Assembly: GCA_046563655.1 (NCBI GenBank)
Contig: CM102285.1
Location: forward strand, 3,100,001 to 3,164,000
DNA length: 64,000 bases
Reading direction: 5' to 3'
Source: Yuukianura sp. NJ FZ-2021
Lineage: Eukaryota
The notes under the pieces are model-generated. The model did not search any database. It was not told where the DNA came from and was given only the letters and a program-made list of their open reading frames with translations. Shown here piece after piece: positions 21,919 through 49,200 of this stretch. The position numbers and the translations under genes were made by a program. Every line of letters starts with the position of its first letter. Position 1 is the stretch's first letter.

Positions 21919-23026
21919 TGCGGTGTAGTCTTCATCTGGTTTCTGGTTTGGGTTTAAGCTAAAACCGAATCATACGTGTAACTTACTTGTATATATTACT
22001 TATTTAGCTTGTATTAATTTCTTACATTAGATTAATAAGTACTGTAATGTGTGTACGGACACGGAGTCTTCAATTATTTGTGTAGTGTATATACCGCTCT
22101 TCTTTTCACGTACTCGGCGCGGTTTTGGTTTTGTTGTTATGTTTGTATATGATGATGGTTAATTTTTGTCAGGATAGATTTTACGGAGGGGCTTTTTAGA
22201 TTAGATTTACCTTAGATTTCTTATTAATTTAGGAACGAAAGTGTACGTGTTATATTGCTTTAGTAAAAAGTTTGACCGGACAAAATATCGACTCCACACT
22301 CCAGACGTCCAGACTAACAAGGAGTGATATGATGATGATGAGGATGACGCATCATCATCACATGCCCATAGGAATCGTTTTACTTCGGTTGCAAAGCGTT
22401 CCATGAGAAACAGTTTAAAGTTTAATAATGCTTTTGCTTTTCCTGAACAACTTGAAGCATTTTTGCATACCTTTTACGAAATGTTAACTTTGGTAACCTA
22501 AATTTGAGAAATTAAAATGCACTTAAATCCCTCGTCATGCTGTCATTGATTGACATAGACGGAATTGTGCGCTTTAATAATAAAGCTGTTTACCACAATT
22601 GTCTGCTCTTCGTGTTCCGTTAAAAAAAAGTCATGTTTAGAAGGAGGTCATTTGAAAGTTAATCCTACGTGGACGTCTACATAGGCTTTGGCTTTTGTGT
22701 GTTTTTCTTTAGAAGGCAAATTATATTGGAAGGGAGAATAAAATCATTATTTTTCAGATTCATGAACGCTAGGCACGAAAATTATGAGGGTAAAAATGGC
22801 ACAGAACAATAAATTTAATACATGAAGTGCGTACAAATATGTTGCAAAGTAAAGTTGAAATAAATGTGTTACTTCTCAAGTCAACAAATTTTTGAATGTT
22901 GGGGTTCATATTTTCAGACTTATAGAAATATACTTACCGTATTACAGAAACAAGCCCGCGTTGCATTCGTTACTATTAGGAGCGTTGATTTAAGATATGT
23001 AGTTTCATTTTCACATTGTTTGTGGA

Positions 23027-23290
23027 TATGTTGTGGCTATGTTGTGACTATGTTGTGGCTACGTTTTGACTGTTGTGACTGTTGTGGCTATGTTGTAACT
23101 ATGTTGTGGCTACGTTTTGACTATGTTGTGACTGTTGTGGCTATGTTGTGGCTATGTTGTGACTATGTTGTGGCTATGTTGTGGCTATGTTGCGGCTATG
23201 TTGTGGCTATGTTGTGACTATATTGTGGCTATGTTGTGACTATGTTGTGACTATGTTGTGGCTATGTGGTGACTATGTTGTGACTATGTT
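23027..23290. repeat. 11-bp minisatellite (G[G/A]CTATGTTGT)n
   Basis: Roughly two dozen near-perfect tandem copies are directly visible. Confidence 0.95.
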
Positions 23291-24069
23291 TGAAAATTTT
23301 ATAAAGAAAAATTATGCCAACACTACATGGACACTTGGTAAACGATTTGTGCATGACAAATAGTATAAAATTTGCAAAAATGCCACTTTTTTGGCATAAT
23401 CATAGAATATTTTGCTGAATATTTTTTATATTTTTTTTCAAGAAATATGTTTTTTAAAAGGTAAAAATATGTAATATGTAAGAAAATATGTTTTGCGCCT
23501 CTGTGTATTAATCGAGCAAGACTTTCTATTACTAGGACTGCTAACACGGGAGAATGAAGAAGCTGATTTTGCATTATATTTTAACCAAAAAACTTACCTG
23601 ATACTTTTGAACAATCACCCGTAGTTTGAATATCATCTAATCATATAAAATAAATAAAATAAATAATAAAATAAAAAATAATCATCTAAATTGAATAAAC
23701 AAATTGAAATGTTAAGGACGATACTTACTAAAATTTTCACTTCTGGAAATACACAAACAGAAAGTTTTGAGAACCACTTTTAAACACGCTGTTCAAGTTG
23801 TCTTGAAGCGTTTGTTTTTAGTTGCCCGATTTACTTTTAAGTTGCATTTTAGAACATATACGAATTGGTCTGCTATTCCCCTCATATGGTTGTAAATACC
23901 CTCGAAGAATAGGCACTTTCGGCTTCATATCGTCACAAAGACGACTACGTTAGCAACAACAAGTGGTTGTTTTGGTTTTGGTTATGTTTTTCTGCAGTTC
24001 TGGATCTGGTCTCAGATGCAGTATTTTCCTCCATGGAAATAATACGTAAATTTTTAACAGCTCTTTTTT

Positions 24070-24377: not shown

Positions 24378-24405
24378 TATTGGCTGATTATCTAACCAAC
24401 CGGAA

Positions 24406-26934
24406 ATGGGGCCGCCATTGATTAAAATCATTTTATCAAATCAGGATGACGATGTGTATGGAATATTTGACCGGAACGGTTCGGGAGCTGTCGGGCAGCC
24501 GCGGGAGTTCGTACTTTCAGTTGAGTGTGATTATAATCCCAGAACTGGTGGTCTTACGACAAGCGTTTCGCCTCTGGAGTACAAAGGAGTCGAAAATCGG
24601 GTAACCACTAATCATGGCGGGCCAGCGAATTTTATTCACGTATCTTTCCAACGGCTGAGTCAAGCAGGATTTGCTCAAAAGCAATTCAATGCCGAAAAGA
24701 AGATTGAGGAGATACTGACGTCTGGAATAACTGTCCAACATCAAGATGAAATACGCACGTTCATCTTTTGTGGACACAGCAACAGCCAGTTGAAAAGTCG
24801 AAGCTGCTTTTTCTACAAAGCAGAGTGTGCTAACGATGTCACTGGGATCTTAACCGGATTCGGGAACTTTGCTCAAATCAAAACTGTAGAAAAGTATGTC
24901 AAGAGAATCGGACTCTTATTTTCTAAATCAACTGTGGATACACAACTTCAACCAGAGATGACATTGGACATTCCAGACGTTGAAAGAAATGGCCATATTT
25001 TCACTGATGGATGTGGACTCATTTCTACATCATTTGCCAAAACTCTGACCGCGCTAATCGGGAAAGAGAAAAACGATCTTCCAAAGAACTACATTCCAAG
25101 CGTCTTTCAAATTCGATACAAAGGATATAAAGGAATCTTGATGGTGGTCTCCAATGAATTCATCCACGATCAGGCAATCTCAAATCAAAGCCTAATTTCC
25201 AAGATTTGGCGAAGTATTGGCGGTACTGGCAGGATAGTTTTGTTTCGAAACTCGATGAAGAAGTTTGAAGGGTGTCCAGATAATACGTTTGCAGTTTTGG
25301 ATTACTCGAAACCATATTTTGCTGGAGCTCTAAATGCAGAAATTGTTAACTTGCTTTCAAGTAATGGCATTCCAAATGATGTTTTACTCAAGAAACAAGG
25401 GCGGTACTTGAACTATATCCGCAGTGTGGATTACGATAACCGGGAAAGTGTCGTCCAGTTTTTGAAGTTGGTGCGTCGCTACGATCTGGTTGCGAAACTT
25501 GCAGCAGTTGAAGATATACAGTACATTCCTACTTGGATCAAAGGCAAGGTTCAAGAAATGAAACGTCAAGAGTTGTCCAAGTCACTCGATGTCAGTGGAA
25601 TGGCGCGCGTTCATATTCAAATTCCAAATTCCCGCCTTTTGTTAGGCGTTTGCGACGTTTCTGGAAAACTACTCGAGGGGCAATGCTACGTTCGAATTCT
25701 CTCAACAGACTTGACGCATAGCATTCCCATAAGCGGGCAGGTCATAGTGACTAGGAATCCATGTCTTTTCCCCGGAGACATTCAACACTTCATTGCTCAA
25801 GGTAACATTCCAGAATTGGCTCACTTGTCTGACTGCATTGTGTTTAGTACTCAGGGGAAAATGCCGGCAGCATCTACTCTAAGTGGTGGTGACTTGGATG
25901 GAGACAAGTTCTATGTTTCTTGGGATCCTGATTTAATCAAAATGGAATCCAAGGGGGCCCTGGACTACTCTTTATTGGCTCCTCGAACTACTGTTGTTCC
26001 TTCTATCACTTGGGAAATGAGGGTTATGTACTTTGCTCACTATGCAACTTCACTGGGCAACATAATATCACTTTACTGGAAATGGACCAATGCCCGTCCG
26101 ACACAGAGAGCCAACTGCTCCGAGTGCAAACAACTTAGCAAATTGTATGCAAGATGCGTCGATGGTGAGAAAGTCCAAATCCCAAAGGCATTACGCAACC
26201 CGCCGCCCAGCACCAATGATGCTGATATTCTGAAAGTACTGAAACAAAACATCAAGGACATTGTGTTTGGGACGGGAAGAAATTTTCATGACTTTCTTAA
26301 TGCGACTGATGTCATTCCCGAGAGCTTGCCACATGGCGACATTCAAGGCGACGAGCCGTTTCTACAAGATCCTCCTCAACCCGGGAGCAAACGGCAACTT
26401 ATCAACAGAAGTTTAACTGCAATTCGTCAGTTCATATTCACTTTTGGAGTTTGGATGATGCTGCTGTCAATCCCGGGTGTACTATCATGTTATTGGAATT
26501 TGGAGACCATGCGGGAGGTTGGCGGCAGTATACTTTTGGTTGTGGGCGATACAATTGAACAGGTTTTGCTTACGAGGGTAGACGACACAACCATTGGCAG
26601 ATGGATGATACTTTTTGTGGTCATTTGTAGTTGCATTTATGGCCTTGCTATACATGTGACAAAATGGCTGAAGGACTCTGTTAGGGCCTTGGAAATAAGA
26701 ATTCTTGGACATCATTGGAGGCGTGGCTGGATTGGCAAGACGTTCAGATTTGTGAAGAGACTGCTTGTTCAGATTTTCGGCAGAAGAAGGAATTTGGCCA
26801 GATATACCAATGCTCAAGTTGGACAGCGTTTCTACAACTCAGCATCTGTGTATGATGATTTGAACGATTTTATAAACAAATATCAACTACTTCCAATAAT
26901 AACCTTTGCGTTGCTTACCTACCTATTAGGTTAA
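24406..26934 (+). CDS. Cellular RNA-dependent RNA polymerase (RdRP/RDR family), intronless CDS, with hydrophobic C-terminal extension
   Basis: 842-aa ORF with GHSNSQLKSRSC, KRIGLLFS, FTDGCGLIS, PSVFQIRYKGYKG, SRLLLGVCD, VTRNPCLFPGD, and the catalytic SGGDLDGDKFYVSWD (DLDGD at 25891-25905). Confidence 0.95.
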   Translation: MGPPLIKIILSNQDDDVYGIFDRNGSGAVGQPREFVLSVECDYNPRTGGLTTSVSPLEYKGVENRVTTNHGGPANFIHVSFQRLSQAGFAQKQFNAEKKIEEILTSGITVQHQDEIRTFIFCGHSNSQLKSRSCFFYKAECANDVTGILTGFGNFAQIKTVEKYVKRIGLLFSKSTVDTQLQPEMTLDIPDVERNGHIFTDGCGLISTSFAKTLTALIGKEKNDLPKNYIPSVFQIRYKGYKGILMVVSNEFIHDQAISNQSLISKIWRSIGGTGRIVLFRNSMKKFEGCPDNTFAVLDYSKPYFAGALNAEIVNLLSSNGIPNDVLLKKQGRYLNYIRSVDYDNRESVVQFLKLVRRYDLVAKLAAVEDIQYIPTWIKGKVQEMKRQELSKSLDVSGMARVHIQIPNSRLLLGVCDVSGKLLEGQCYVRILSTDLTHSIPISGQVIVTRNPCLFPGDIQHFIAQGNIPELAHLSDCIVFSTQGKMPAASTLSGGDLDGDKFYVSWDPDLIKMESKGALDYSLLAPRTTVVPSITWEMRVMYFAHYATSLGNIISLYWKWTNARPTQRANCSECKQLSKLYARCVDGEKVQIPKALRNPPPSTNDADILKVLKQNIKDIVFGTGRNFHDFLNATDVIPESLPHGDIQGDEPFLQDPPQPGSKRQLINRSLTAIRQFIFTFGVWMMLLSIPGVLSCYWNLETMREVGGSILLVVGDTIEQVLLTRVDDTTIGRWMILFVVICSCIYGLAIHVTKWLKDSVRALEIRILGHHWRRGWIGKTFRFVKRLLVQIFGRRRNLARYTNAQVGQRFYNSASVYDDLNDFINKYQLLPIITFALLTYLLG

Positions 26935-29515: not shown

Positions 29516-29857
29516 TTAGGTCATAGTACAGGTATAGGTAAATCCTAAATAACCTCCAAGACATGCACCGGCAACGGCTAGAATGAGCAATATGTAGAAA
29601 TAGCAGCATGGACATCCTCCAGCTCCAGCACTTTGAGTATAGGCGAAACTGCTTCCGGCCCTAACGTTACCAATATTAGATTGGCAGCATGCCGCCATCG
29701 ACCCTTTGGCGATACCACAGCAAGTGAAGCCAAGGATGGTGAGAGCAATCGGAACCAGAATAACCATGGCTATGGCTCCACCGAGCATGCTTAGAATCCA
29801 GATTCCGATTCTTTCAAAAGCCCAACTCCAGTGCCATGGGAGAAACGAACCGGACAT
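29516..29857 (-). CDS. IFI27/IFI6 (ISG12 motif) family small membrane protein
   Basis: LGFTCCGIAKGSMAACCQSNIGNVRAGSSFAYTQSAGAGG matches the ISG12 pattern GFT..GIA.GS.AA...S...G.V.AGS..A..QS.GA.G and is flanked by hydrophobic segments. A probable 5'-UTR intron lies at ~29861-29939. Confidence 0.85.
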   Translation of the reverse strand: MSGSFLPWHWSWAFERIGIWILSMLGGAIAMVILVPIALTILGFTCCGIAKGSMAACCQSNIGNVRAGSSFAYTQSAGAGGCPCCYFYILLILAVAGACLGGYLGFTYTCTMT

Positions 29858-30272
29858 ATCTGGAATGCAAGAAACGAATAGCTCATGAGTTTGATTGCTA
29901 TAACAATATGTTAACTATTTTTAGCGTTTCTTAATTCACCAGCTGAGCGAGTAGCCCGTGTTGCGTGCCAAACACAGAAGCCTTGAAACTACTACAAAAC
30001 GGGCCTACCAGTGGAAATCTTCAATTTCAATTTCATTTCCATTTCAATTTTATTTCATTTCGCGAGTCTAACGTTAACTAATGACTTTGCTAACTTTTAA
30101 CTATCCCACCCACCGGCCAATATATATTGTTGGATAATTAGTGTTTAATGACACTAACTCCCTAGTTAGTGTCATAAACCCTCCATTCCGAAAGGTAAGG
30201 ATTATGCGTACAGGGCAACAGTTATTATTCTGTACTTATGTTTCATATCTTACCAACGTAGCGAACGCATCC

Positions 30273-30939: not shown

Positions 30940-31056
30940 CAGGGTGGCCCGGTGAAGTCCTTACCCAAGTGAAAGAAAGAGAAACTCTCACATGAGTTTC
31001 TTATGACAATAGTGAGAGGAAAAGAAAGAGGGTAAGGACTTCACCGGGCCACCCTG
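30940..31056. mobile_element. Tc1/mariner-type MITE (117 bp)
   Basis: Perfect 27-bp TIRs CAGGGTGGCCCGGTGAAGTCCTTACCC, flanked by TA on both sides. Confidence 0.92.
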
Positions 31057-31536
31057 TACAAAATATAATACTATAAAATATCGGCGACCGCAGCTTTGTT
31101 ACATTAGCATTTGCTAAAATTTTACCCCAATCCATATTTATTAACAGAAGACTCTGAGCTTGCAACACATTGTGATTGCTTGGTTTAGAATTAGATGAAT
31201 TATGAATTTAATACTGTCTAAACCGTCCTTTCAATCTGTTATACTGTTTTTTTTTTTTAAATAAAGTAAGAATTCTGCAGTTTGCATTTGAAGGATTCCA
31301 TTTCTCTATTTTTGTTTGAAAAGAATGTATTCACACTTAGAATTTTACAAGTTTTATTGGCGGAACTGAAGTGTATAGCCGGAAAGTAAGTTTTTAAAAC
31401 ATTGGTTACATAATAAAGTTAGCTACAATAGCTGTTCTGTCATCAAGATGAGAAGTTTACATGTTGTGGGGCGTAAAGTCTAAAGATCCCCAAGGAGTGT
31501 GATTGGTAGTGATTTACGATTCAAAGAATTTAGTCA

Positions 31537-34500
31537 TCATTGATCTGCCGCATGTCTTTTTAGCATGATGACTGAACCTGCAGCATGCGAAGGTTGGCTT
31601 GGCGTTGGCGCAGGGTGCGGACCTTGCGCCATTTGTGGCATGATGACAGGAACTGAGCCATACATAGGTTGATTTATGTTCGGTACTGGCGGGGGGATTG
31701 GAGGTCGACCATAAAAAGATTGACCTGGCGCCAATGATGCATTGTCCACTTGCCCGTCTGAACCAATCATTTGGTAACGAATGTTATCTGTGACTGGCCG
31801 CTGTGGACTTGAATTCGGGTTGTACGGTGTCGGTAAAACAAGCGGATCATTCCACATAGGTTGTGGTGGTGGCACACCCTGCTGCATCATATTCATAACG
31901 GGTTGATCCGGTGTAACGGCTTGATCTTTCAAGAAGACGCAGAGAGCGCTGGAGTCTCGCGCCAAAAGTGTTCTAGTTTCTCCGAATTCCTTGACTGCTC
32001 CTTTCTCCATTACAATAATATGAGTGCACGCTCGAATTGTTGCGTTCGAGCTGGTAACGATTAGAGTTGTTCGCTTTTTAAAAACATTGTCCAACGTTGT
32101 CAACAACACCTGTTATATAAATCTTTTTTTTACATTAAAGTTTTGAAACATAACTCAAACTCAGAATTTTTAAGAATTTATGTTCACCTTCTCCTCTTCT
32201 GCATCCAGTAGAGCCATGATGTCTTCAAGTAATAATAGTTGCGGCGGTGACCTGCATACAATATGAGCAAGATTGTCGTATTTCCTTAATTGGAATTGAT
32301 TTAGTACTATTACCGACATTACATCACGTTGATCATAATCATAAGTATACCAGTTTTACCTAATGATTGCCCGAGCAATAGCAATGGCTTGTCTTTGAGT
32401 CGGGTTTAAGTTCTTTCCGTTTTCTCCACACTTCGTATTGAAGCCCTAAATTTCATACGATTTAAGCGTTGAAATTAAACCAATGATGTGATGTTGGATT
32501 TAGTTTTTATACGCTTTATCATTTTAGAAAAGAAGTTAGAAAATGTGCTTACTTCTGGTAGTTCGTCAATGAATTTCTTTAAATTCGCATCTGTCGCAGC
32601 ACGTTGAATTAAATCATGCAAACCCGTCATGTCGCCATGGTAGCCAAATTTAATGTTATCGTCTACGGTGATGTCAAACAATTTTGGTTCAGATGGAACA
32701 TAGCCAATGTTGCTTCTGAGATGTTTTATACTCCAATCCCGTACATCAATGCCATCTACTTTCTAATAGCAGAAAGTTTACATTGCAAAGCTTGCTTCTG
32801 GCATAATTTAAATTCCGATTTTTAACGACGACTCAATTTATGTTCTTACCACCCAACCAGTTTGAGCATCGCAGAATCGCAGCAATAACGCTAGAATTGT
32901 TGTCTGTCCACTTCCTGGAGGACCCACTGCAAATTAAGTACAATATGAAATGCACATAGCTATGCATAGAATTTATTTATAAAGTACGTGAGACTATTAG
33001 ATTTTACTGGATTTAAGCTTCACTACGTAGCTCACCGATTCCAACTAAGCTTTTTGCGGGGATTCTGAAAGTTGCATTCTTCAGTTCGGTTTCGTCATTA
33101 AGGGGATCCTTAAACCACACGCTTTGGAACTCCACTTCGCCGTTAAACGCTCCTTTACTATGTTTGAAGTCATCTGCTGAATCAGTTAGAGGTTTTAGGT
33201 CAATCAGGCTAAAAATGGCGTCTCCGGAACTTTTAGCCTTGAAAAACTCTGGAATGAAGCTTGTTGCTTGTCCGACGCTTAGGATTCCAAAAGTAAGGAC
33301 GAAGAAAATGCTAGAAACAATGACACAAATGCCAATGAGGTTGCATTGTTGTAAATTTGACGTTCAAAGAGACGTACGAAAACAAGTCAGACACGGCGAG
33401 AATTCCATGTCGAAGCAACTCTGCTCCAACCGAGAACGCAGCTCCAAATATGAAGAACATGAAGCATTCTGAGGTAGCGTACACCAGTGAGTACCATACA
33501 GCTCTATTATAACCGTCGCTAAACATATAATATACTACATATATTTGCATGTACATATAATATACCCAACCTCTGTCTACCTTTTAATATTATATGTATG
33601 TGTAATATATTATTAGTTATGCTAATACGTTAATTAAGTTAAAGTTGTTGAAGGCTTAAACTTACAGAAGCGCAGGGTAGAGAAACTTTTCCGCTTGTAC
33701 ACAACCTGCATATGCGTCACACTTTGTCTGAATGGCCTCAATTCCATTGATTAAAGAAGTGGTAAGCTATGATACACCATAGTAAATACAAATTAAATTC
33801 AAATCAACACTAATTACGTTACGTTATGAACTACGTTACGTAGTTGAATTTATTTTCATTAGAGTAGACACGTTTCGTACCCGTAAGACTTCTAATACTT
33901 TTAGGTTATACGGGGCAAATTATGTATATTACAAATTTTTGTACACTGTTGTGTACAAAAATTTGCATAGCAGTGTGTTATCAGACAAAGCCATAACGTT
34001 AAAACAATAAATATTTTCAGCGACTAAACGCAAATTCTTATTATTACAAATTTGTATGAAGAAATCATAAGCTGTTACTTACATCCACAATTCCTTGTCG
34101 ATTTGCAAATAGTTTAACTTGTGAGCCCTTCAGAACACGAGCAAGTGTGGAGAAGCAAGACACAAGAATTGGAATTGTCAAAAACGCCACAGCAGCAATT
34201 TCCCAACTGAAGAATAGTGTAATCACAAGCCCAGTGATCAACGTCATAATGGCATTCACAGCAGTTGCCAACCGAGGACCCATCGCCTAGAATACAGGAG
34301 TCAAAATATTCTCAACTACGCAGGTATCAAATCTAGTGAAAAATTATAATCATAATTGACAATTTTTTACTAACGTTTTTAATAACAGGTACATCCGAAG
34401 ACAAGCGGGTATACAGACCTCCAGGGGAATTTTCTTTGTTTTCAAACCAGCGTACGTGCTGTTGTAGAATAGAGTTGTAGCTGGCAATGCGTAGGCGTGA

Positions 34501-37500
34501 TCCAAGGTCTTCGGCAAAATAACCGGTGAAAATATTTCTAATGGCAAAGCCAACGGCCGCCAATGTAGCTAATCCCAACAGCACCTCCACCCAGTTAATT
34601 CCGGACGACAACAAATTTTGTCTTGGTCCAATAAACAACTACAAGCATAAACTTTCTACAGGTTTTGCAACGTTTGAGCAACATTCATAATGTGTTAGGC
34701 TTACATCCAGAATTTGACCCAAAGAAAGCGCTAGAAGCGGTATAACTAGACCACTCAGTATGCATCCAACTATTCCGAGGTACCACAATCTTCTTGACTC
34801 AAATGGCATCAGTTTTAGTAATTTCCGGATAAAGGCCATGGAATCGAATATATTTTTCATGGATGCTCCCATTAGTACTTGAAACCGGTCAACAGTTTCG
34901 TCTTCATCCCTCTCTGTTTCTACACGATAAACTAATTGAGTTGGAAACATCTTGTTAAAGTCACCACAGATCCGTCTCAGTTCCTCAGGAGTGCCTTTCT
35001 CTGTCACGCATCCATTCTATTAAAAACATGTGTCAAAGAAACTAATGTGGATTAGCGTGGTATGGAAATGCATTAAATGTAAAACAGACAATTACTAATA
35101 AGAAAAAAAAACATTTTTGACTTTAGTAAGAAGAATCGACCAAATTTCACCTTCAAAAAATAAATGTAGTCGCATGATTCAAATACTTCTGGGGGTTTGT
35201 AGTCGACAACAATGGTAGCAGTGGTGGTTTGTCGGCATTTTTTCAAAGTTTGAAGAATTTTACATGCATCGCTAAGTTTAAGTGCTGACAAGGCTTCACG
35301 CAAGATGAGTACTTTGGGTTTCGAGATAATGCACTTCGCTATAAGAATTTTGATTCTGAAACAAAAATAGAACGAACCGTAATTAGATCAGTAAAGATTA
35401 GATTTGTATCCAGCTAATTAAGGTTCAAATTGATCTTTGAATGATATCTACATTTACACAGTTTTTACAGTTTGTTTTATACGACGACTAAAAGTAGAGT
35501 GCCTTACCGCACATCCAACGGAAACAGTGCTGACGCGGTGGAGTCATATTTCTAAGAAACGTTCAGGTAGTTTGTATTATTATATGTACCACAGTTATCC
35601 AATATCAATGTACGGTGCAAGTTGCAGAAGCGCTTTACATACTATCTATATATATGTAAGATCTATATATGTATATAATTGGACGATAGTATAAATTTAA
35701 CTTACATTGTCGAGCCCTGCTATGTATTTGTCGAGCAAGACAATTTGAGCGGCCTTCTCAACATCGTGGAAGGTGACATTTTTATTAAAAGAACGAATGT
35801 TTTCAAATATTGTCGTGTTAGCCAGCGTCTAGAAATGTGGAACAAAATTTAGCAAGAGATTTTCTAACAATTGTTTTTAAAATTTGTTGTGTCGTGTTAC
35901 ACTATTTCGGTCCACAACGGCAAACTGCTTACGAACCCATCGCACATTCTATTACACGATTTATATATAACAAAACGTATTAATACCACATACCAAAATT
36001 CTGTTATGAGACAAAGGCATAAACAATTGTAACGCACCATGGTGGTTATATCGTGTTCATCAAGTTTGATTACACCGGATTGTGGATCATATAAGCGCAG
36101 CATGAGTCTGACGAGTGCGCTTTTTCCAGCTCCGTTTTTCCCGACGATCGCTGCATTTATTTTGGGCATAGTAAGTTGGTTATTCCCGGGCTTTCCTTAT
36201 ATGTTTTCACTAAAAAATTTTATGCGTAAAACATTTACCAAAAAGCCCTTTCCCTGGTACTTCAAAATTCAATTCGTTGAGGACCAGTTTCTCCGCCATG
36301 GTCGGGTAAGCAAAAGCTACGTTGCTGAAGTTAATTTTTCCAGTAAAGCCTTTTGGACACAAACCTGTAATGGCAATGGCAATAAATCTAGGTAGAGATT
36401 GTGGCAAATATATTTCATGCGGTGTAACTATAAGAATCATCTTGTATAAAAATTTACCGCTGTTGCAGAGTGGTGATATACAACAAGTGTTGTACTTTTT
36501 ACAGTTACGTCAAATTAAGTTCAAGGAAAACCTACCTGATGTGCTGTATGGATCAATTTCAGGTATTGAATCCAAAACAGTTCCTACAAGTCGGTATGAC
36601 GAATAAGCTGAAGCGATTTCACTCAGGTTGGGCAGTAGTGAGAAAATGGCAAATACAGAAATTGTGAGACTAAAGAAAACTGTGTAAATTTCTCCTGGAC
36701 TGATGACGCCTTCGTGCAAAAGGTTGACTGCGTACCAGAGTGCGACTGCGTAGAAGACGTAAATCAAGAAGTACATTCCACCAGTACCAAGTCCAATTAT
36801 AACTTCTTTGTGTTTGGCAGCCGCGGTTCCATACGATAGTGCTTTCTCGTATCGCTCTAACTCTCCTCTCTCTTCACCAAAAGCAGCTACAGCCTGTATA
36901 TTCCTTATCCCTTCAACACAGATTTTTCCGGCTATGACACTTTGTTGTTGTGCTTCAGTTGATGCATTGCTCATTTTCTAGTTTTCAAATAAAGTTAAGT
37001 TTTTAAAAGTTTTTTTAAAGTTTTTAATTTTTAAAAAAATCTAGAATTTTGAAAGTTCAACTTACTTTCCAGACAAGCATTAGCTTTGTGAATACAAGTG
37101 GCGCTGATCCTAGCAACACCAAGGTCAGTTTTGTGTTGGTGAGGAGACCGATTCCGGCACCAAAAAGTGCAATTATGCTGTACTCAATTACAAGCACAAA
37201 TTTTTGACCAACTCCTTCACGAAATCGTTCACAGTCACTGGAAAAATCAAAAGATATAAATTTAACACTACACACTTATAGTATTTATGCAAGAAAAAAA
37301 ATTTGGGTTTTCTTTTTAAAGATGAACATTTTCCCGAGTTTCAAATTTCAAATTTCGTCAACTTTGTCGCGTAATTTCTTACTCTGTCATTTTCATAACA
37401 AGGTTTCCCACCGATCTAAAGCTGAACCACGACATTTCTTGCCTTTGCAGCTGATAGATATACTTTTGTCTGATTCGGTACAATTGGTTTTCAGCCATCC

Positions 37501-38748
37501 ATTCCCAAATTAGTGTCTAGTGAATATAATTTATAAAATGCATTAGTTTTGCCTTGCTCATGGAAGTTGTGTTGTTTTTTTTTTTCCAAATTTTCATTTT
37601 GATTTAGAAAACAACCTGGAAGAAACCAGCAAAGAAAACTGCTATTCCAATGTAGAAGTAGTATGTTGAAAACTCAGCAACGTACGTAGCAAAGTCTCCA
37701 ACAGTTTCCGTCCCATTGCTGCTGTACAAATTCAAATTTCCAAAATATCCACTGCCTTGAACAGCTCCTGCGTCTGGGATAGCCGTAACGTTTACTCCAG
37801 GAGCAAATTTGGCGGTAAATTTTGAAAGCAATGACAGCGTAGCCTGTCCACTCACTCCAATGCTACTATCATCTCCAGCGAGAGAACTGTTGGGACTGAT
37901 CTGCATTTCCTGCGTCCAAACCCACAAACTCATATACTATATAATTTAAGTTTACAAATTGTTTTCTAGTGTTGACAAACTTACATGAATTGTATGGACA
38001 ATGTAGGCATTGGAAATTTTTCCAAAGAGGCTGAAAAGTTACAATTATGAGCATTAGCATAAATTCTTTGATCGTGTCAGTTTTTTTCTTATTTAGAAAG
38101 TGTAGGTAAAATATGGCTTTAAATATTAATGTGTTCTTACATTGCCAGCAGTGGGAAACTCGCTGCGTGAATAACGGTAAAAGCTAGTCCCACGAATAGT
38201 ACGAATCGGTCAAATCCAGACGTAAATGCAAACTAAAATTATCGTAATCAATTTTGAATTCAGCTGTAAATGCTAACTGCCTATTTCTTTAAAAAAAAAT
38301 TTTTTTTTTTGTAAAAACAAACTTACTAGCTTGGAAATCTTGCGGAGTATCCCTTTTGCCATTTGTTCTCCTGTACCTTCCAGCAGCTCATCGTCAGGAA
38401 TTTCATCCTCCACATTGTACTCGCTGTTTTCAAACAAGAAAATTACAAAATATGAACAACAAATTACAATTCCGAAACTAAAACGTGTTATAAATGCTTG
38501 TATGAACTTTTTGGTAGCGTTCAACGTATTGTTATTATTGGTGTATTTGTGTGCATAGCTAAGATACTAGCTAGATAAGAATTTGGGTAACATAAGATTT
38601 GCTTTTGTTAGGTTAAAAATATTGCATACTATTCTTCTTTCTCTGCGCGTAGTTTTGTGTTTTCAGCTTGTCTTCGTAGTGTCTCAATGAGTGGTTGACG
38701 GTCTGGGTCAACAATGAACTTAGCACACGCAGAAACAAAGGAACTCAT
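31537..38748 (-). CDS. Full-length ABCB (MDR/P-glycoprotein-like) transporter with degenerate nucleotide-binding domains
   Basis: ATG at 38748 ([11 protein letters not shown]...). Many exons give TMD1-NBD1-TMD2-NBD2 order, with motifs [36 protein letters not shown]...[22 protein letters not shown], followed by a Pro/Gln-rich tail and stop at 31537. Confidence 0.9.
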
Positions 38749-39545
38749 TGTCACTGGCTGACAATTCGTTGCGCCCAACGTTTTTTTTTTCGCTAATTTC
38801 TTTTAGTTTTCTTCTCAGTGTAACACGCTAACCACCAACTTAATTACTGAGAAGTAAAACTTTCTCAACATTAATAAATTGTAACTCATTAAAATCTTTG
38901 TCACAATTAGTGCATTTGGTTTACCGATTTTGGCATAATTATCGTTACATTGTTAAATCAACACCGCATTGCCTTGCCGCAAGCACTATTTGCTGAAAAA
39001 TTGCATCTGCTTTTTGGTGAGTAAAATTGATATTTGCAATCGGAGCTGCTTTGTTAGTGTATCATATGTGGTTTTTGGTCTCGTCTTAATGAAGTACGCG
39101 AGAAAATAACTTCTCAGCACATTCAAACTAAATTAAATACAACGCGAACAGCAATGCGTTCATTGCGCTCATGACATTTACAAGAAAATTCTGCATATGA
39201 ATTTCTAGTATCTTGTCCATATCCTATGACAAAAATTACACATTTAGTACAGTTGAAAAACAGTTTCAAAAGTGCTAAAAAATTCTTTTTGGCAATCCGC
39301 CAGTGTTTTCTAGCCGAATACTGCATTCAAGCATAGTTATTTTAAGAATTTGGCACGAACTAATATGCAACACAAAAGGAAAATAAATAAGTTTAGTTTA
39401 CTGATTTCTAAAACGTAGAAGACATTACAAGCAATACTATCTTCTACTACCAGAATTTGTGTTTCTAAAAATCAAAATTTCGAAAATTCTTTTGAAATTG
39501 AAGTTACTTTAATTAAGTTTGACTTAATCAGAACCTTTATTTTTA

Positions 39546-41894
39546 ATGGCGGAAGGTTCGAAGGATATCGAGGAGGTTTATAATGAATACCGCGAGCGTA
39601 AGTTCCAAATTTAATTTTCAACCAAAAAAAAAAAACAAGTATCAAATTTTGAACAATTTTGTTTTGTTTTTTTGTTATTTTTTGTTGCTAGAAGCTGAAC
39701 GGCGCTATTCTGTTTACTTGGGAGAATGTACGGTGGGTGACGCTACAACACACGAGTTGAAAAGGAAATCTGACCCCGACGTGACCTCTTCTGTGTCCGT
39801 CGATGAAGTGGAAGAGCGTGGAGAAAATCTGGACGGTTGGGGTGTATTGCCTGACTTAATTATCGAGAAGGTTTTCAGCTATTTGGACATACCTCGTCGC
39901 TATGTCGCTAGTCGAGTATGCCGTCAATGGCAACGAGTGAGTCGGACAGTTTACCAACATTACTGCATTTTAAAAAATTCAAACTTTTCTCCACTACACT
40001 GTTACATGCAGTTTTGTTAATGGGAATGTCGATGGCTGTTGCTTTTAGGCTTTTCAAATGCCCGGGAGTTGGAACACTTTTGTTCTCCAGGATGAAACCT
40101 TGACACGACACAAATTCAATTACTACATGGGTTGGCAGGTTATTAATTTTTTTTGACAAAATGAAAAAATACATGCTGTAGTTACCAATTACTACAATCC
40201 TGTGCCTAGCGTACCATATAAAAAGAGAATTTGTTTAATCTTTTTAGTTGATCCTAGACCACCTACGAGCACAAATGGCGATTTTTCGAATTGGAAGATT
40301 TGTTCGAAATTTAGTTCTTGCTCCAATGACGAATCTGTTTAACTTATACGAGTTTATGAATCTATTGAGCTACTACTCCGAACGCTACAATGGTATGAAT
40401 GAAAACGTATTCTCCCAAATTTACTATGCGAAATAAATGTTGATTTTTTAAAAATTCAAAAATTCAAATAATTTTTAAATAAAAATGTCTTTTTGCAGAA
40501 GATGAACGGTCGAGAGCCCCGCTTCACATCATGTCTTTCAGATTTATATTTCGCTGTGATTTGACAACAACCACAGAACACTCAGTCTATGGCACTGGTG
40601 CGCTTGTTTCATTTTTTTCACGACTGTGCAGTGATTTACGAATATTTTCAACAATTTCTTTTGTACAGGTGGAAAACTGCTAGAAGGACTGAAGCGTCTT
40701 ATGTCAAATTTAAATGAACTGCTCAATCTGGAACTGATTGATTTGATGTTGGATTCAACCTCAGAAGCGATTCATTTGCTTGACGATGTCTGTGCATATC
40801 TTTGTCCAACGCTCGAGCGCCTTGTGCTCATCAACGCTACCAGGAGTCACTTTCCATTACTTCACCCTGCTTGTTTCATTAACCTACGAATTTTGAAAAT
40901 TAGTCCGCAAAACATTGGAACGGAAACAGTGGAACTGCTTTGCAGCAATCTGTACTTGACTGAACTGCACTTTATCCAGAACAAATACACGGAATTCGCA
41001 ATAGCAGTGGACCGCCGTGCTTGGAAAAATGCAAAATTTGATGTGTTCCTCAGGTAAATATTGTTTTAAACTTGTATTCCAAAAAAACAGAAAGTGCAAA
41101 ATCTAACCTTTCAATTTTTCTTTGAACAATGTAGAACGATAGCCAACACTGATAAGGAGTTAATCTGGCAAGAAGGAGCTCCCGTTAAATCCATTATTTT
41201 TGACAGTCCATTGACAAAGGCAAATTTCTTGGAAAGTTTTTTTGAGGACGTCAAAATGTTTGATTTTTGTTTTTTTTTTTTACAGTTGTATTCAACATTG
41301 ACAATTCTTGAATTTGTACGTAGGTTGACTGGACTGGAATTTTGAGAGTCGTTGACCTGTACGGGAGTAAGCTGGAAGAGTATGGGCATTTGGGGCTTCC
41401 TAGATTCTGGAGGTCAAGGAAATTTAATGACAGAGTTGACTCAATGCTTGTTACAATTTGCCGGAAATGCTCAAATTTGAACACACTTGTAAGCCCAATT
41501 TAAATTAGTGTCAAAAACTAGTAAGCTGTCATATTTTAAATTAACTATATTTTAAATGTTATTTCAAAAGTTATTAGTTTTCTTAAACTGATGATTTACG
41601 TTTTAATTGCAGTACGTCAGGGAGAGGATCTCTACGTCTACACTTCTACTGATTGTCACTCTTGCATCAAATTTGAGTTCCTTGTTTGTTCGAAAAAATG
41701 CGCTCATACTAAAATGTGACTATAAGCAACACAACCTGACTCTTGACCCGGAAATTTGCAGTTGGATCGAGCAAAATGCAAAGTCATACGACAAAGTGGA
41801 AAAAGAAGTTGGTAAACTACTGTACCAGAAAGACTGGCAAGGTTTATCCGATGCCATGTACAAACAAATTTCTAAATTTAAACCTGCGTACTAA
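39546..41894 (+). CDS. F-box protein with LRR-like region (FBXO39-like)
   Basis: F-box WGVLPDLIIEKVFSYLDIPRRYVASRVCRQW; later exons include GGKLLEGLKRLM, LKISPQNI, YGHLGLPRF and RERISTSTLLLI. Stop at 41894, AATAAA downstream. Confidence 0.85.
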
Positions 41895-44800
41895 TTATAT
41901 TTGAACAGATTTTTTTGAAATAAGTGAATAAAAAACTAAATAAAAAACTAAGCTCGGTAGGATCCTGTTGTATTTTTTGACGTCGAAAGTTACCAGACGC
42001 ATCGCGATTATCGCCATAATAATTTTGACTTGTAGTCATTTACGGCAACATTCAAATCTGGATTTGGACTCTGAACAGGATTTTGGAAATGGACTTTGTA
42101 TTTCTTGATCTCGTGACCAAATGTTATAGTACAGTGAAGTGACCTCCACGACTGTAAGATTATAATTTGGAGAGAGTATACTACTCAAAGAGTTTTTTTT
42201 TAATATCCAGACACACTTAATCAATCCAAATGTGTGTATTGAGTTGACCTCAAATGCGAGCATTTTGGATTCGTTGAGTAGTGAGGTGACGCACGTCAAA
42301 AATATTTCTACTTCAATAGATAATTTCTGTGTAAACGTCTGTAATGGCTTTCTAAATGACAGCAAATCAACTGTTGCAAATCAAAAGTAAAAAAATCTCA
42401 CGTTCCAATATTTTCTAAAGAAAGTTATCGCTCATGAGGCAACTGTTTTAAATTTTTTTTTAAATTAAAATGCTGAAGTGTTTTTAAAGTGAAGTATTGC
42501 ATGTAATTTGAGCTGAAAGCATAACAATGGAATGATTTACATGGAGCTTTGTAAAGGACAGAGGAAGGTTACAGGAAAATTGTGTGTAGCAACAATTGAG
42601 TGGCATGATGCGTCTTAACATTTAAGTGGACTTAAAAACTATGGACTTTGACCAGCTCCACAGTAAACGCAATCTTGTTACCAAAGATTCCGAAAGTTGG
42701 ACATTGCATGAGATGTCTGTCATGACCAAACATTTGTCTGACGCAGACAAAATCTCATATCCATTCATATGAATACAAGTTGAAAACGGAGTTTGGACCT
42801 CCGCAACATCTGAACGGAAAAATTATCCCTTGTAGCGAGTGACTCTCCTACCACCTATAACAATTTATAACAATTTTGGATTGAAAATAATAGTGTACAA
42901 AGAAAACAAAAACAAAATTGCATGAGAGTAATATTTTGGTGCATTCTCCGGACAAGGACAAAATGAATGAGTATCACTTAAGACTAAAAGTGGTTTCCCT
43001 TACTATTGTTGTGCTGGATGGGAATGACAATTGAGTTGGTTTGTTAATGATTATGGGACTTTGACAAGAGAAATCGAATGGACTTTGAACTTTGGCTAGG
43101 GATGGGAACCGCACTGTTTAGCAATATCTCCAAATAACGTAAAAATTCCTTTGCACGCCCGGTTGGTACCAAGAATTTTTCAAGGTCTTTTGTTTAACAT
43201 ATTATTTTCATTAAATTCTTCCTATTCAGAAAAACTTGCACTGCAAGTACTATAAGTAACGAAGTGTATGAAAGCGTTTTCCTACATGTTTTTTTCAAAT
43301 AGTTCGAATATGTTACTTATAAGATTACTTCAACTTTTTGGAACAAGAGCAACACAAAACTAAAATATTGAAAACGTATAGCAATGCTTTGAACACCAAT
43401 ATAACTAAAGCAAATAAAAAAAACACAAAAGGAATAAAATTAACTCATGTTTTTTTTATTGAAACTCAGAAAGGTTATAAAAAAAGTCAGTGGAATTCTA
43501 AGAATTTGCGGTTGGATTTTTTGGAACAAAAAAGCATATTCCAGAAATGGTTTTGAAATGTTTGATAAAAATCGGAAATGACGTAAATTTGAAACTTTTG
43601 AATAAGTATGGTACATTCTCCTTTTAGAAAAATTACGGTATAGTGAAATCACTGCTGGTAAACTGACAACTGCCACAACAGAAAGTTTGTGGCTTGGATT
43701 TCAAAGGCAATTTTACACTTCCCTATGGCCCCAATCTGTTTGCTAACAAATGCTTTGAGATGTCTAATGCCTAAGCCTGTCTGGACCATAAATAAATTGA
43801 GGTCGAGTGAATTCCTGATTCAAGATCCAATATACATAGGAGTTAACTGACCTCCGCCACGCCTCCCAATCCATCTCGTCATATGAAATTCAAGTATCGG
43901 CTTTCTATTTTCAGTTTTCAAAAAAAATATCTTTCAAAATTTCACGAAATTGCAATAGAAATATCCCGTTTCTCCTGTCTCTTGACATAAAAATCTTGTT
44001 CCAAGGTTCATAAAAGCTGTTATTCTATTTTTAGCTTTTTACAAACTTCACAGAAAAAAAAAATTTTGTGTTTCTTTTTCTGCGGTCGGTAGATACAAAT
44101 TTTTGGCTTGTAGCTCTTTCCTTGTTTATATGATCCAAAGGCCTTGAGTTGACATACTACACGCAAAAACGCATACATAGCTCAGGAATTTAGAAAATTC
44201 AAAGCAAATTTTCAAAGTTATGAAATTTTGAATTTAGAAAGTTTCATCTGTCTATAGCTTCCAGGATGTCATACAAAGGGCATTGCCTTCAGAACCAAAA
44301 TGTCCTACTTTGCCAGCTTACCAGCCTTGAGCATAAGCCCAACTTTTACGGCACATTTTTCAACTTGAAAATTCAATTGTTCTCAGAAGGGAGGTGTGTC
44401 TTTCTATTGTTAAATTTTTCAAAATTTCTTTTTTGAAACTGCGGCCTAAACGCATGTTCCCCGTTTTTACATTGACTTGCATAGCGTACTACACCCGCCC
44501 CTGGATATATCCAATCCCTTGCTTTGCCAAGAAGCCACACACCAGTTTTGGTTAGATTCAATTGGTTCGTGCCTGCAGACAAGTAGTCAGTCATACCGTG
44601 GCATCGCATACAAAACATAATATTGTTGCTTCATCAGTCCTTTATAGTCAATTGTTTAGTCAGGTCATGCCCATCAACCTAATCTATACCTAGTAAAGTC
44701 AAGTAATTTAGCCTTAATTGAACTCAACGTTAAGTTACGTCACTACGGTGTCACAGTTCAGAGTGGAATTTGATACATCTCTACAAAGTCCATTTGTCTT

Positions 44801-46242: not shown

Positions 46243-49200
46243 AACTGCTAGTGCTGGAAGTGGAGTAAACTATGACCCCTTTGAGTCACCGCAACTAAGA
46301 CAACAAACGCCAACATTCGGAGTCATTTCGGCGGAGACTCCTGAAGTCTATGATGCTTCAACAACGTCACACGACTTGCATACCGGTTAGTATTAAAATA
46401 CTATTATACAAGTTATCTTAAAATTAAACAACTTCAATTGAGTTTTAAATTTTAATGGATTCATGATTCGTTGCAGAATCCCAGCATAAGAAAGCTGCTC
46501 TTGAGAAGCGTTTGGTTCCAGCGCTCAAGGTTATGACCAAAGTCTATGACTTTGTGACGCTTCCCGTTTACGCAAGTATCCAACAACCATGGAAGAGGAT
46601 GACACTCCACAACTCCATGAAGGTAACTGGTTTCACAACCCTAGGGAAACTTTAATTAGGAAAGTCGTTTCTCATTTTGCTGAAAATGACGTCATATTTT
46701 AACATTGCAATTGAAATTTAAAAAAAAATTCCAGGCAGTGACGGTGAATCCCGAGAAGACAATTTACAATTCCACGGTCCCACACTGTCGCCTCCACCGT
46801 GAACTGGATGCTGCCGGAGTTTATACCATGGATGCCTTGTATCAACAAGCCATTGAGTGGCATGGTGATAAGAAGGCTTTGGGCGTGCGTGAAGTTTTGG
46901 CTGAAGTGGAAACTGTAGATGTATCAACTGGGAAGAAAATGAAGAAATTCGATCTAGGGGAGTACAAATGGAAGACATTCAAGGAAGTGGACGCAGTAAT
47001 TCAGAATTTGAGTCGTGGATTTGGGTTGCTCAAGTTGAAGCCCAATGAAAAAATTGCAATTTTTGCGGAAACTCGGGAAGAGTGGCTTTGTACGGCCATG
47101 GTGGCTTGCAAGAAAAACTTGCCAAGTAAGTTTTAACTTTTGTGCCTTTAGCTATGTAGCTTTGCCTCAAGCAATCAAAAATTTTTATATTGATTCTTGA
47201 GATTGCAGTAAACAATGGTCAAAGATTTCACTAGAAACTGACGTCGTTTTACTACCATTTTTTCTTATGAAAATTTATGTCGTAAACTTAATTAATTAAT
47301 TACATTTTTTTTCTTCTTCTAGTTGTTACTGTCTTTACGACATTGGCCGACGACGGTGTGATTCATGCATTGCAACAAACTGAAACGTCGACAATCATTA
47401 CTTCAGAAGAGCTTATGCCTAGATGCAAGGAATTGCTTAAACATGTTCCACAAATTAAGAAATTGGTGTACATGGAAAAACCGAAATTTGGTACCTGGAA
47501 TCCTTCAGAAAAACTGGACAACGATGTCCAAGTTTTCACTTATTCGCAGCTCGTAGCTGCTGGTGCAGATCGATCGGTTGAAATTGAAGGTCCGCCACTC
47601 ATCAACTTTCTTTCAAAAATTCATTACCTTTAGGAATTTAAAATTTGATTTTGAATTTTAGAACCAGTACACGAACCTCCAAAACCAGAGGATTTGGCGA
47701 TCGTGATGTACACAAGCGGAAGCACTGGAGTGCCTAAAGGAGTGATGATCTCTCACAAGAATTTTGTATCGGCCCTGAAAGCCTCTCTGGACGTGACCTC
47801 TATCGTTGGAGAGGCTAGGCCAGACGATACGTTTGCGGCGTACCTTCCACTTGCTCACATTATGGAACTTATGTGTGAGTCAATGACGTTTCTCCAAGGA
47901 ATCCCAATAGGCTACAGTTCACCATTGACGCTAACCGACAACTCACCGGGGGTCAACCAAGGATCCGTTGGAGACACGACCTTGATCAAGCCCAGCGTCC
48001 TTCCAGCAGTTCCGGTAAGTTACTTTTTTGAAGGAAAATGTTAGTTTAGGTTCCAAAAGTGCTTCAAGTTCGAACCCGAAATGAAAAGCTTGAACTTCGA
48101 ACCTAAGGGTCACAGTTCGAACTTTTTTAACCTGCAAAAAGCAATGGCTACTAAAACATGTTGAAGTAATCAATTAAGCGATTTACATCTGAAATGCACT
48201 GTCGTCTGTATTTGGATGCTTTTTCAAAGTTAACTTAAAACAATGGATTTAGAGTTAACTAAAACTACCTTCTGTGGCAATGCTTGGGTTTTGGTTGAAA
48301 TTCATACATTGTTGCATATTTTGCTAATATTGACCGTTAAGTTCGAACTCTTGTCGCTCAAGTTCGAACTACGAACCCAGCAAAATAGTCAAGGACGAAC
48401 TCTAACTTTGAACTTGAAGCAGTAGTTTCAAGTATCTTTAAGTTCAGAAGTTCAAATTTGTTTGTGATTTATATTTGGAATTTTGTGTTTTCAAAATTTT
48501 CAGCTTGTGGTGGAGCGCATTTGCAAGGGCATTAAAGAAAAAGTGTCAGAAGCCGGTCCACTGAAGGAGATTCTGTTTAGTTTTTTCATGGATTACAAAT
48601 TGTACTGGAAGAAATTGGGCTACGATACTCCATTGGTGGATCGCATATTTTTTCGTAAAATTACTTCACTGATTGGTGGACGCATGCGCTTCTTGGTTGT
48701 GGGCGGCGCTCCACTGGCACCGAAAACGCAAGAATTTATTAGTGCTGCACTATGTTGCCCTGTTGCTGTTGGGTATGGAATGACAGAGACTTCATCCATT
48801 GCTGCACTGACCTTAGGTAAGGCTACTAATATGAAAAAATCTAAGTTTTTTCAAAATTATAACAGGAAAATGTTTAAAATCTTTTGAATTTTTGTTCAGA
48901 ATATGATTTGAGCGTGGGAAGACCGGGAGGCCCAATTGGCTGCAGTTATTTTAAACTCGTGGATTGGGAAGATGGTGGGTACAAAACCACAGATAAGCCT
49001 TATCCACGCGGAGAACTTTACATTGGTGGTGACAATGTCGCCATGGGTTACTACCAGCGTACCGATTGCAAAGACTTTTTCTACGAAGACGGAAAGCAGT
49101 GGATTCGTACTGGAGACATTGCTGAAGTTCATGAAGACGGTGGTTTCAAAATCATCGGTAGGAAACTTCCAAACATTTGTTCCGAATTCAATGTCTGCTT

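Follow-up and report, generated by a model that had tools for sequence, protein, structure and literature searches.

Can an exporter of the P-glycoprotein type lose the catalytic residues of both its ATP sites and still be maintained as a gene? The question is raised by a locus on contig CM102285.1 of Yuukianura sp. NJ FZ-2021 (GenBank assembly GCA_046563655.1). There, a stretch of 64,000 nucleotides (nt) at positions 3,100,001 to 3,164,000, hereafter called the window, carries on its minus strand a gene resembling the ABCB family of ATP-binding cassette (ABC) transporters, between window positions 38362 and 31537. Our reading, to which we give a probability of about 0.6, is that this is an intact, selectively maintained P-glycoprotein-type gene whose predicted product no longer hydrolyses ATP at either site. 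The original prediction had called it a pseudo-ATPase ABCB. As far as sequence can show, this is supported by the loss of indispensable residues from both sites, by the maintained reading frame and by the lack of a rescuing exon.

The window is AT-rich, with GC contents of 33-45% across 2-kb bins, and ABC-transporter-like peptides are found in minus-strand stop-to-stop open reading frames (ORFs) from about 38400 to 31537. The gene was rebuilt by hand: in-phase GT/AG pairs were enumerated, junctions were read in three frames, and exons were joined on the basis of homology and splice consensus. The resulting model has 24 exons and a coding sequence (CDS) of 4209 nt including the stop, which predicts a product of 1402 amino acids (aa) with no internal stops. 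All 23 introns follow the GT-AG rule and measure 48-316 nt; two donors are weak (GTTGTT and GTAACA). Least certain in this predicted model are where translation starts and which acceptor exon 4 uses. An alternative acceptor for exon 23 at 32284, which adds 11 residues, was rejected because it disrupts the fixed spacing between the IARA anchor and Walker B. It had been claimed earlier that the exons stay in phase with canonical splice sites and without stops, and the 23 GT-AG introns and 1402 open codons bear this out. The span then given, 31537-36170, holds for the part from the first Walker A motif to the stop, but the gene is larger, with the first transmembrane domain (TMD1) and the start extending upstream to 38362. 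The parts of the gene are as follows, where NBD stands for nucleotide-binding domain, TM for transmembrane segment, L001 for a metagenome contig with a relative of the gene, and P0002 and P0043 for two further relatives.

31537-38362, minus strand: whole CDS, model built from coordinates, compared by blastp with full ABCBs
38327-38362, minus strand: exon 1, putative start ATG, 5' end putative
38141-38232, minus strand: exon 2, TM1
37985-38030, minus strand: exon 3, 46 nt, end of TM1
37616-37936, minus strand: exon 4, extracellular loop 1 with three N-x-S/T sequons, and TM2; acceptor picked from several in-phase AGs
37383-37516, minus strand: exon 5
37066-37237, minus strand: exon 6, TM3-TM4
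36536-36977, minus strand: exon 7, TM5-TM6; Pfam ABC_membrane 2.5e-16; the query that found P0002, P0043 and L001
36239-36364, minus strand: exon 8, start of NBD1, A-loop FAYP at 36314-36303; 126 nt, as in L001
36038-36150, minus strand: exon 9, NBD1 Walker A; Pfam ABC_tran 1e-09 on the enclosing ORF; 113 nt, as in L001
35901-35948, minus strand: exon 10, NBD1 Q-loop; 48 nt, as in L001
35706-35828, minus strand: exon 11; 123 nt, as in L001
35508-35551, minus strand: exon 12, 44-nt microexon, NBD1 X-loop and signature region; 56 nt in L001
35151-35355, minus strand: exon 13, NBD1 Walker B, D-loop and H-loop position
34705-35016, minus strand: exon 14, end of NBD1, linker, TM7
34375-34638, minus strand: exon 15, TM8; Pfam ABC_membrane 6.3e-10 on the enclosing ORF
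34083-34286, minus strand: exon 16, TM9-TM10
33666-33766, minus strand: exon 17
33378-33518, minus strand: exon 18, TM11
33036-33310, minus strand: exon 19, TM12, start of NBD2, A-loop position
32850-32926, minus strand: exon 20, NBD2 Walker A
32553-32762, minus strand: exon 21, NBD2 Q-loop; Pfam ABC_tran 16.9 bits on the enclosing ORF, below the cut-off of 25
32360-32445, minus strand: exon 22, NBD2 X-loop and signature
32188-32251, minus strand: exon 23, NBD2 Walker B and D-loop
31537-32109, minus strand: exon 24, NBD2 H-loop position, end of NBD2, Pro/Gln-rich tail; stop at 31539-31537

Judged by its alignments, the gene is a member of the ABCB full transporters (P-glycoprotein-type), with its nearest named relatives in ABCB rather than in ABCC, ABCA or ABCG. 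In blastp, residues 12-1269 of the model are colinear with residues 50-1281 of P0007, a Steinernema hermaphroditum 'ABC-type xenobiotic transporter' (29% identity, E 1e-176); the other nearest named protein is P0003, ABCB1 of Halyomorpha halys. The TMD-NBD-TMD-NBD order on one polypeptide is present, and domain hidden Markov models made from 16 canonical ABCBs match the model at residues 13-413, 418-657, 720-1022 and 1029-1265. These 16 proteins, which served as the comparison set, were taken from the 18 best full-length blastp matches; P0038 (N-terminally short) and P0031 (not picked) were left out, neither of them for its result. A hydropathy scan gave about 6+6 hydrophobic segments, with TM9 under the threshold used, and three N-x-S/T sequons lie in extracellular loop 1. 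Of eight single-exon ORFs scanned with Pfam, four matched a family at scores above the cut-off or close to it, and the other four gave nothing or a weak unrelated match. ABC_membrane (PF00664, cut-off 28) reached 60.6 bits with the ORF of exon 7 and 39.6 bits with that of exon 15, and ABC_tran (PF00005) 39.5 bits on the ORF of the NBD1 Walker A exon and 16.9 bits on that of the NBD2 Q-loop exon (cut-off 25); the remaining single-exon NBD ORFs scanned gave no ABC_tran match. Over their full length, the NBDs match the domain profiles with 165 bits (NBD1) and 204 bits (NBD2), against at least 349 in the canonical proteins. Probably, the NBD folds are kept and the active-site shell is not.

The product thus shares with ABCB1/P-glycoprotein-type transporters its domain order, its number of TMs and its matches in the PDB, which for the NBD1 exon ORF are Ste6, ABCB4 and ABCB1. 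It differs from them in its identity of only about 29%, in two ATP sites without catalytic residues, and in a C-terminal Pro/Gln-rich extension of about 137 aa (about 31950-31540; 20% Pro, 10% Gln). Searches with the last exon, which bears this tail, gave 306 word-index candidates with no significant match and no homologue of the tail. In the ESM Atlas the exon found short unnamed clusters or clusters of ABC C-terminal fragments, which are uninformative, and in the PDB the last exon by itself ranked NBD1 of MRP1 first, as a weak match (2.5e-05). A word-index homologue search with exon 7 gave a single match, P0001, at 30% identity.

The evidence for loss of hydrolysis lies in the ATP-site motifs, which were called by aligning the product with 12 canonical ABCBs; coordinates of the NBD2 D-loop, the NBD2 H-loop and the tail were derived by hand from the model. 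An ATP site of an ABC transporter is a composite to which one NBD contributes Walker A, Walker B, Q-loop and H-loop, while the signature comes from its partner NBD. In NBD1, the A-loop FAYP (36314-36303) retains its Tyr and Walker A GKNGAGKS (36142-36119) is canonical. The Q-loop reads VVDRNS (35918-35901), with Gln replaced by Arg, and Walker B VLILRE (35312-35295) has Arg for Asp with the Glu retained. The D-loop is SALK (35288-35277) and the H-loop position VVDYK (35210-35196) is without His. Exon 12, for which the canonical pattern is T.VGE.G.QLSGGQKQR, has lost the X-loop through changes that include a deletion, and its signature region ALFPLDVR (35530-35508 plus the first base of the following exon) is degenerate. 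In NBD2, the A-loop position WFKDP (33117-33103, compared with F.YP) has lost the aromatic residue, Walker A GPPGSGQT (32924-32901) has Gln for Lys, and the Q-loop VPSEP (32699-32685) has Ser for Gln. The X-loop TKCGENG (32436-32416) is retained, the signature LNPTQ (32409-32395) is degenerate, the D-loop ALLD (about 32214-32203) keeps its Asp, and the H-loop position VTSSN (about 32055-32044) is without His. Walker B of NBD2 is LLLLED (32238-32221). Because the stretch from the IARA anchor to the LD.E.EK anchor is longer by one residue, this motif can be read either as a double change of Asp to Glu and Glu to Asp or as Asp to Leu with the Glu kept; the Asp is lost under either alignment.

Because each site joins the motifs of one NBD to the signature of the other, both composite sites are degenerate. 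Site 1 combines an intact NBD1 Walker A with the replacement of Walker B Asp and Q-loop Gln by Arg, a missing His, and the LNPTQ signature of NBD2. Site 2 combines the Lys to Gln and Gln to Ser changes and the missing His of NBD2 with the NBD1 signature LFPLDV and its deletion. A consensus site is left in neither position, so that the pattern of one degenerate and one consensus site does not apply. The Walker A Lys, Walker B Asp, Q-loop Gln, switch His and signatures are indispensable in established ABC enzymology. Residue changes of this type are treated as abolishing hydrolysis in sections of PMC7544095. All degenerate motif strings quoted in the original prediction are present in the spliced product.

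Exons elsewhere in the locus could in principle restore the motifs, and this was looked for in two ways. In tblastn with the 16 canonical ABCBs, 209 of 213 high-scoring segment pairs (HSPs) fall on exons of the model, and the four that remain, all weak (E >= 0.19), map elsewhere in the window. When all six frames of 31000-39000 were scanned with regular expressions, no canonical signature, Walker B or H-loop strings turned up, and the canonical Walker A strings were limited to that of NBD1 and one chance plus-strand look-alike. The introns of the gene are free of ABC-like HSPs, and none of their frames spells a canonical motif string. The possibility that a transcript with other exons would restore the motifs, named beforehand as one that would overturn the prediction, thus found no rescuing exon in the locus.

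The reading frame argues that the gene is more than a relic. The spliced exons contain no in-frame stops, compared with 76 and 77 in the other two frames, a contrast which, like the E value of 1e-176 against full-length ABCBs, goes far beyond chance, and exons have a GC content of 43.8% versus 28.2% for introns. Premature stops, frameshifts, broken splice sites and lost coding composition, the usual marks of a pseudogene, were not found. When neutral evolution was simulated (300 replicates per setting), the frame stayed free of stops with a probability of 0.097 at 1% substitution per site, 0.007 at 2%, and 0 from 5% upward. Since many substitutions and an in-frame deletion underlie the motif losses, and little neutral time is possible, these losses must have arisen while the frame was under selection. 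By these marks, the gene is clearly not a decayed pseudogene and is maintained as coding.

Relatives of the gene are few. An exhaustive HMMER search with exon 7 against 1.84 billion representatives yielded 1011 matches at E <= 0.001, of which one is close: P0002, an exon-sized ORF of 152 aa from a public assembly, with 55% identity. Apart from P0002, identity among the matches listed is at most 44% for exon 7 and at most 33% for full-length proteins, and no annotated full-length orthologue was found among the representatives with this query. A metagenome scan with an alignment of exon 7 and P0002 gave 189 pattern matches and one relative contig, L001 (1921 nt). An alignment-based scan of prokaryotic genome contigs gave 34 pattern matches, none of them a relative. 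In the exon-7 tree, the window sequence, L001 and P0002 form a clade (support 98/96) with P0043, likewise an exon-sized fragment of a public assembly, as its sister (98/96); members of this group are 54-61% identical to the window in exon 7.

What L001 preserves of the relative is the last part of exon 7 followed by exons 8-12. Exons 8-11 equal those of the window in length (126, 113, 48 and 123 nt) and phase, and the exon 10 donor GTAAC is common to both, whereas intron 10 measures 448 nt in L001 and 72 nt in the window. For exon 12, L001 has 56 nt (LHGGKDLSIGQ) and the window 44 nt, an in-frame difference of 12 nt that is the sole one in length in six exons. NBD1 of L001 has A-loop YGYP, Walker A GPGSSGKT and Q-loop VVEQKA, in which the Gln is kept; its signature LSIGQ stands directly before R and is partly altered. 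No Walker B exon is recognisable in any frame of the last 357 nt of L001 (1564-1921), so its intron 12 is longer than the 152 nt of the window or the exon is very divergent. With the signature LSIGQ and with Walker A and Q-loop intact, L001 may perhaps represent a stage with one degenerate site. The window gene differs from its relatives L001, P0002 and P0043 in that L001 keeps Walker A, the Q-loop Gln and LSIGQ, whereas the window copy is without the Gln, carries a 12-nt deletion in the signature exon and has a branch three to five times longer.

The comparison with L001 also allows selection to be estimated. Over 780 aligned coding nt the two are 52% identical in amino acids and 62, 75 and 36% identical at codon positions 1, 2 and 3. 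The nonsynonymous distance dN is 0.40-0.43 and the synonymous distance dS is saturated (1.9 by LWL85, 4.3 by maximum likelihood; not computable by NG86 or YN00, since synonymous sites are saturated), values that are pairwise, averaged over both lineages, and are based on a portion of TMD1 plus the N-terminal half of NBD1. As judged from these codons, the pattern shows strong purifying selection when averaged over the window and L001 lineages. A neutral dN/dS had been named as a finding that would refute a maintained gene; against the one partial relative, dN lies well below the saturated dS.

The divergence of the product is concentrated in the NBDs. Its identity to the 16 canonical ABCBs is 0.27 in TMD1, 0.22 in TMD2, 0.31 in NBD1 and 0.36 in NBD2, compared with 0.33, 0.29, 0.54 and 0.54 for the same domains among the canonical proteins themselves. 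Of the columns whose conservation in the set of 16 reaches 80% or more, the model retains 50 out of 103 in NBD1 and 59 out of 94 in NBD2, and the lowest canonical protein retains 89% and 90%, respectively. Departures from the canonical consensus were counted also against L001, at columns with a consensus of at least 50%. In NBD1, 28 are found in the window only and 9 in L001 only, with 34 columns kept by both and 21 lost by both (chi2 9.8). By these counts, NBD1 has diverged faster in the window lineage than in L001.

In view of the above, three other explanations should be weighed against a maintained, non-hydrolysing transporter. The gene could be a dying paralogue that lost its function with the second ATP site, is unexpressed or neutral, and is too young to have acquired a stop or frameshift. 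Several observations that weigh against our reading speak for this. In TMD1, the window branch of the exon-7 tree is 0.71 compared with 0.15 and 0.23, and over 125 shared columns of exon 7 the window has 21 unique changes versus 7 and 11, so that the long TMD1 branch could mean relaxed constraint across the whole gene; it is this branch that keeps the explanation alive. The conserved TMD columns are slightly fewer than in every canonical ABCB (TMD1 33 of 53, 62%, lowest canonical protein 65%; TMD2 15 of 29, 52%, lowest 61%), and conserved NBD1 residues are lost in excess (the 28 versus 9 above). The lack of an annotated full-length orthologue and the low identities of all listed matches but P0002 point the same way. 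Further points against our reading are that the TMD1 departures are 5 in the window only and 3 in L001 only, counts so small that the contrast between 28:9 and 5:3 is not statistically established, that the doubly degenerate state is seen in this one sequence, with NBD1 of L001 much less degenerate, and that the dN and dS values average over two lineages and cover 780 nt. Set against a dying gene are an open frame of 4206 nt over 24 exons with every splice site canonical, an undiminished GC contrast between exons and introns, and a dN far under the saturated dS. Moreover, the probability of 0.007 for no stop at 2% substitution means that no more than a very small part of the branch's divergence can reflect neutral time. 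A dying gene is therefore unlikely in our judgement, though it is the strongest of the three competitors.

A second possibility is that the product is a regulated transporter or channel that still depends on ATP, in which binding or slow non-canonical hydrolysis at NBD1 switches the conformation, as at the degenerate sites of CFTR, SUR and TAP. The canonical Walker A and A-loop Tyr of NBD1, its Walker B Glu, the X-loop and D-loop Asp of NBD2, and the whole-length match of both NBDs to canonical profiles are in agreement with such a switch, and tight binding of ATP for minutes by degenerate sites of ABCC proteins is described in sections of PMC7756269. The known cases, however, hydrolyse ATP at a second, consensus site, where the protein described here has Lys to Gln and Gln to Ser changes and no His. 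Both signatures are lost as well (LFPLDV with its deletion, and LNPTQ), the Walker B Asp and Q-loop Gln of NBD1 have both become Arg, and changes of this type are regarded as abolishing hydrolysis, both in general enzymology and in the sections of PMC7544095 referred to above. We consider the switch improbable. Even less probable, to the point of being very hard to maintain, is an artefact of the gene model or assembly, in which the true transcript uses exons with canonical motifs or the locus is a mis-assembled mosaic. The model was indeed made by hand from homology and splice consensus alone, the start codon and exon-4 acceptor are uncertain, and two donors are weak. But the short introns hold no ABC-like HSP or canonical motif, the lengths and phases of exons 8-11 recur in the independent contig L001 together with the GTAAC donor, and the product is colinear with canonical ABCBs over residues 12-1269.

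If the gene is maintained and its product does not hydrolyse ATP, the following mechanism can be proposed. Having kept its P-loop and the stacking Tyr, NBD1 would probably still be able to hold a nucleotide. Arg has taken the place of both Mg2+ ligands (Walker B Asp and Q-loop Gln), and NBD2 no longer offers a partner signature, so that binding would be Mg-independent and non-hydrolytic and the NBD dimer would not be clamped shut. With no ATP-driven power stroke, there would be no vectorial pumping. The ABCB cavity could bind a hydrophobic ligand or a partner, and the NBDs together with the Pro/Gln-rich C-terminal tail could form a cytosolic docking platform. A non-catalytic role as receptor, regulator or scaffold is, tentatively, the most likely function; a passive facilitator or scramblase-like conduit is less likely and rather doubtful. 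The repurposing suggested in the original prediction, as a receptor, scaffold, channel regulator or passive conduit, is thus a conjecture that may or may not hold. It should be weighed against these proposals that the scaffold, receptor or conduit roles are inferred from analogy and from the composition of the tail.

The double loss may be specific to the window lineage and not an old conserved state, given that NBD1 of L001 is much less degenerate. A stepwise route is suggested by the Walker A, Q-loop Gln and LSIGQ that L001 keeps, in a sequence that stops before Walker B. An ancestral exporter would have had one degenerate site, compromised in the NBD1 signature that forms part of the site built on the NBD2 Walker A, after which the second site would have been lost in the window lineage. 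Taken as a whole, a maintained eukaryotic P-glycoprotein 'pseudo-transporter' that keeps all four domains, holds nucleotide without hydrolysing it at either site, serves as receptor, regulator or conduit and arose stepwise through an L001-like ancestor with one degenerate site is a proposal for which we see about even chances.

How does this compare with known systems? SbmA/BacA-type proteins provide a precedent for ABC-exporter-like TMDs that work without an ATPase, but they are bacterial and have no NBDs, while the window gene keeps both NBD folds. ABCB11/BSEP, TAP1/2, CFTR, SUR, MRP1, TM287/288 and BmrCD share with the window product the kinds of substitution involved, which affect Walker B or the catalytic Glu, the switch His, and the partner signature. 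A pattern of this type with one altered site is also present in the comparison protein P0014, in which Walker B of NBD1 has Met for Glu (LLLDMA) and the NBD2 signature is LSRGQ, resembling ABCB11. Well-studied ABC exporters, including asymmetric ones, keep at least one hydrolysing site according to sections of PMC7756269, where the degenerate site is thought to be a structural hinge or an ATP sensor for the active site, and degenerate sites of the ABCB11 kind are found in parts of PMC7544095 next to a consensus site that is kept. These sources agree, as far as the sections bear on it, with the earlier statement that asymmetric ABC proteins lose one site and not both. Exporters with one degenerate site thus keep a consensus hydrolysing site in the literature cited, whereas in the window product the second site is degenerate too. 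No exporter with both sites degenerate was found described in the full-text literature searched, which left subscription journals and supplements outside reach.

If the proposal is true, an animal-like genome makes use of the exporter fold in a way that does not depend on hydrolysis. The protein would then be a natural example with both sites dead, in which the behaviour of NBDs and TMDs could be studied without a power stroke, as well as Mg2+-free nucleotide binding, the resting conformation, and binding of ligands or partners. The gene and its relatives would offer an evolutionary series from canonical sites through one degenerate site, as in L001, to two. Naming by homology as a 'multidrug resistance protein' would mislead inference on resistance or toxicology.

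The neighbouring ORFs of the window encode a kinesin motor, a BTB protein, an RNA-dependent RNA polymerase (RdRP), an Ifi-6-16-family protein, an F-box protein, an AMP-binding enzyme and a ROCK-like kinase; scans of the whole window for Rfam families and tRNAs gave no matches. Going by the kinesin, BTB, F-box, Ifi-6-16 and ROCK-like kinase genes, the genome resembles that of an animal or of a close relative of animals. The F-box gene (39547-41900, plus strand; Pfam F-box 1.8e-08, with later ORFs that look leucine-rich-repeat-like by eye) stands head to head with the ABCB gene at about 1.2 kb between putative starts, and because of this arrangement the two may share a promoter region. On the other side, about 1.6 kb past the stop of the ABCB gene, the same strand carries an ORF of the Ifi-6-16/ISG12 family (29516-29914, minus strand; 132 aa, 2.2e-12). 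The kinesin motor gene (3819-5285, plus strand) has a 488-codon exon with a Pfam Kinesin match of 5.6e-87. The AMP-binding, acyl-CoA-synthetase-like gene (46690-49786, plus strand) has several exons. The kinase gene (55201-61000, plus strand) is multi-exon with long coiled-coil exons; one exon matches Pkinase at 2.4e-16, and the coiled-coil and PH-like C-terminal ORFs look ROCK-like by eye.

The RdRP ORF (24388-26934, plus strand) is uninterrupted over 848 codons, matches Pfam PF05183 at 1.6e-100 and has a hydrophobic C-terminus of about 200 residues. Its best matches are fungal RdRPs, at 40-43% identity, and unnamed assembly fragments; animal matches from corals, an anemone, a tardigrade and a nematode score much lower. 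It is possible that this RdRP was acquired horizontally or belongs to an unusual clade, in an otherwise animal-like neighbourhood. Close to it, the 22001-24000 bin has the lowest GC content of the window (0.334) and a jump in GC skew to +0.165 after -0.124. An ORF at 22864-23217 (plus strand) consists of repeated CCGYVVTMLWLRFD-like peptide units and looks like a tandem repeat rather than a gene.

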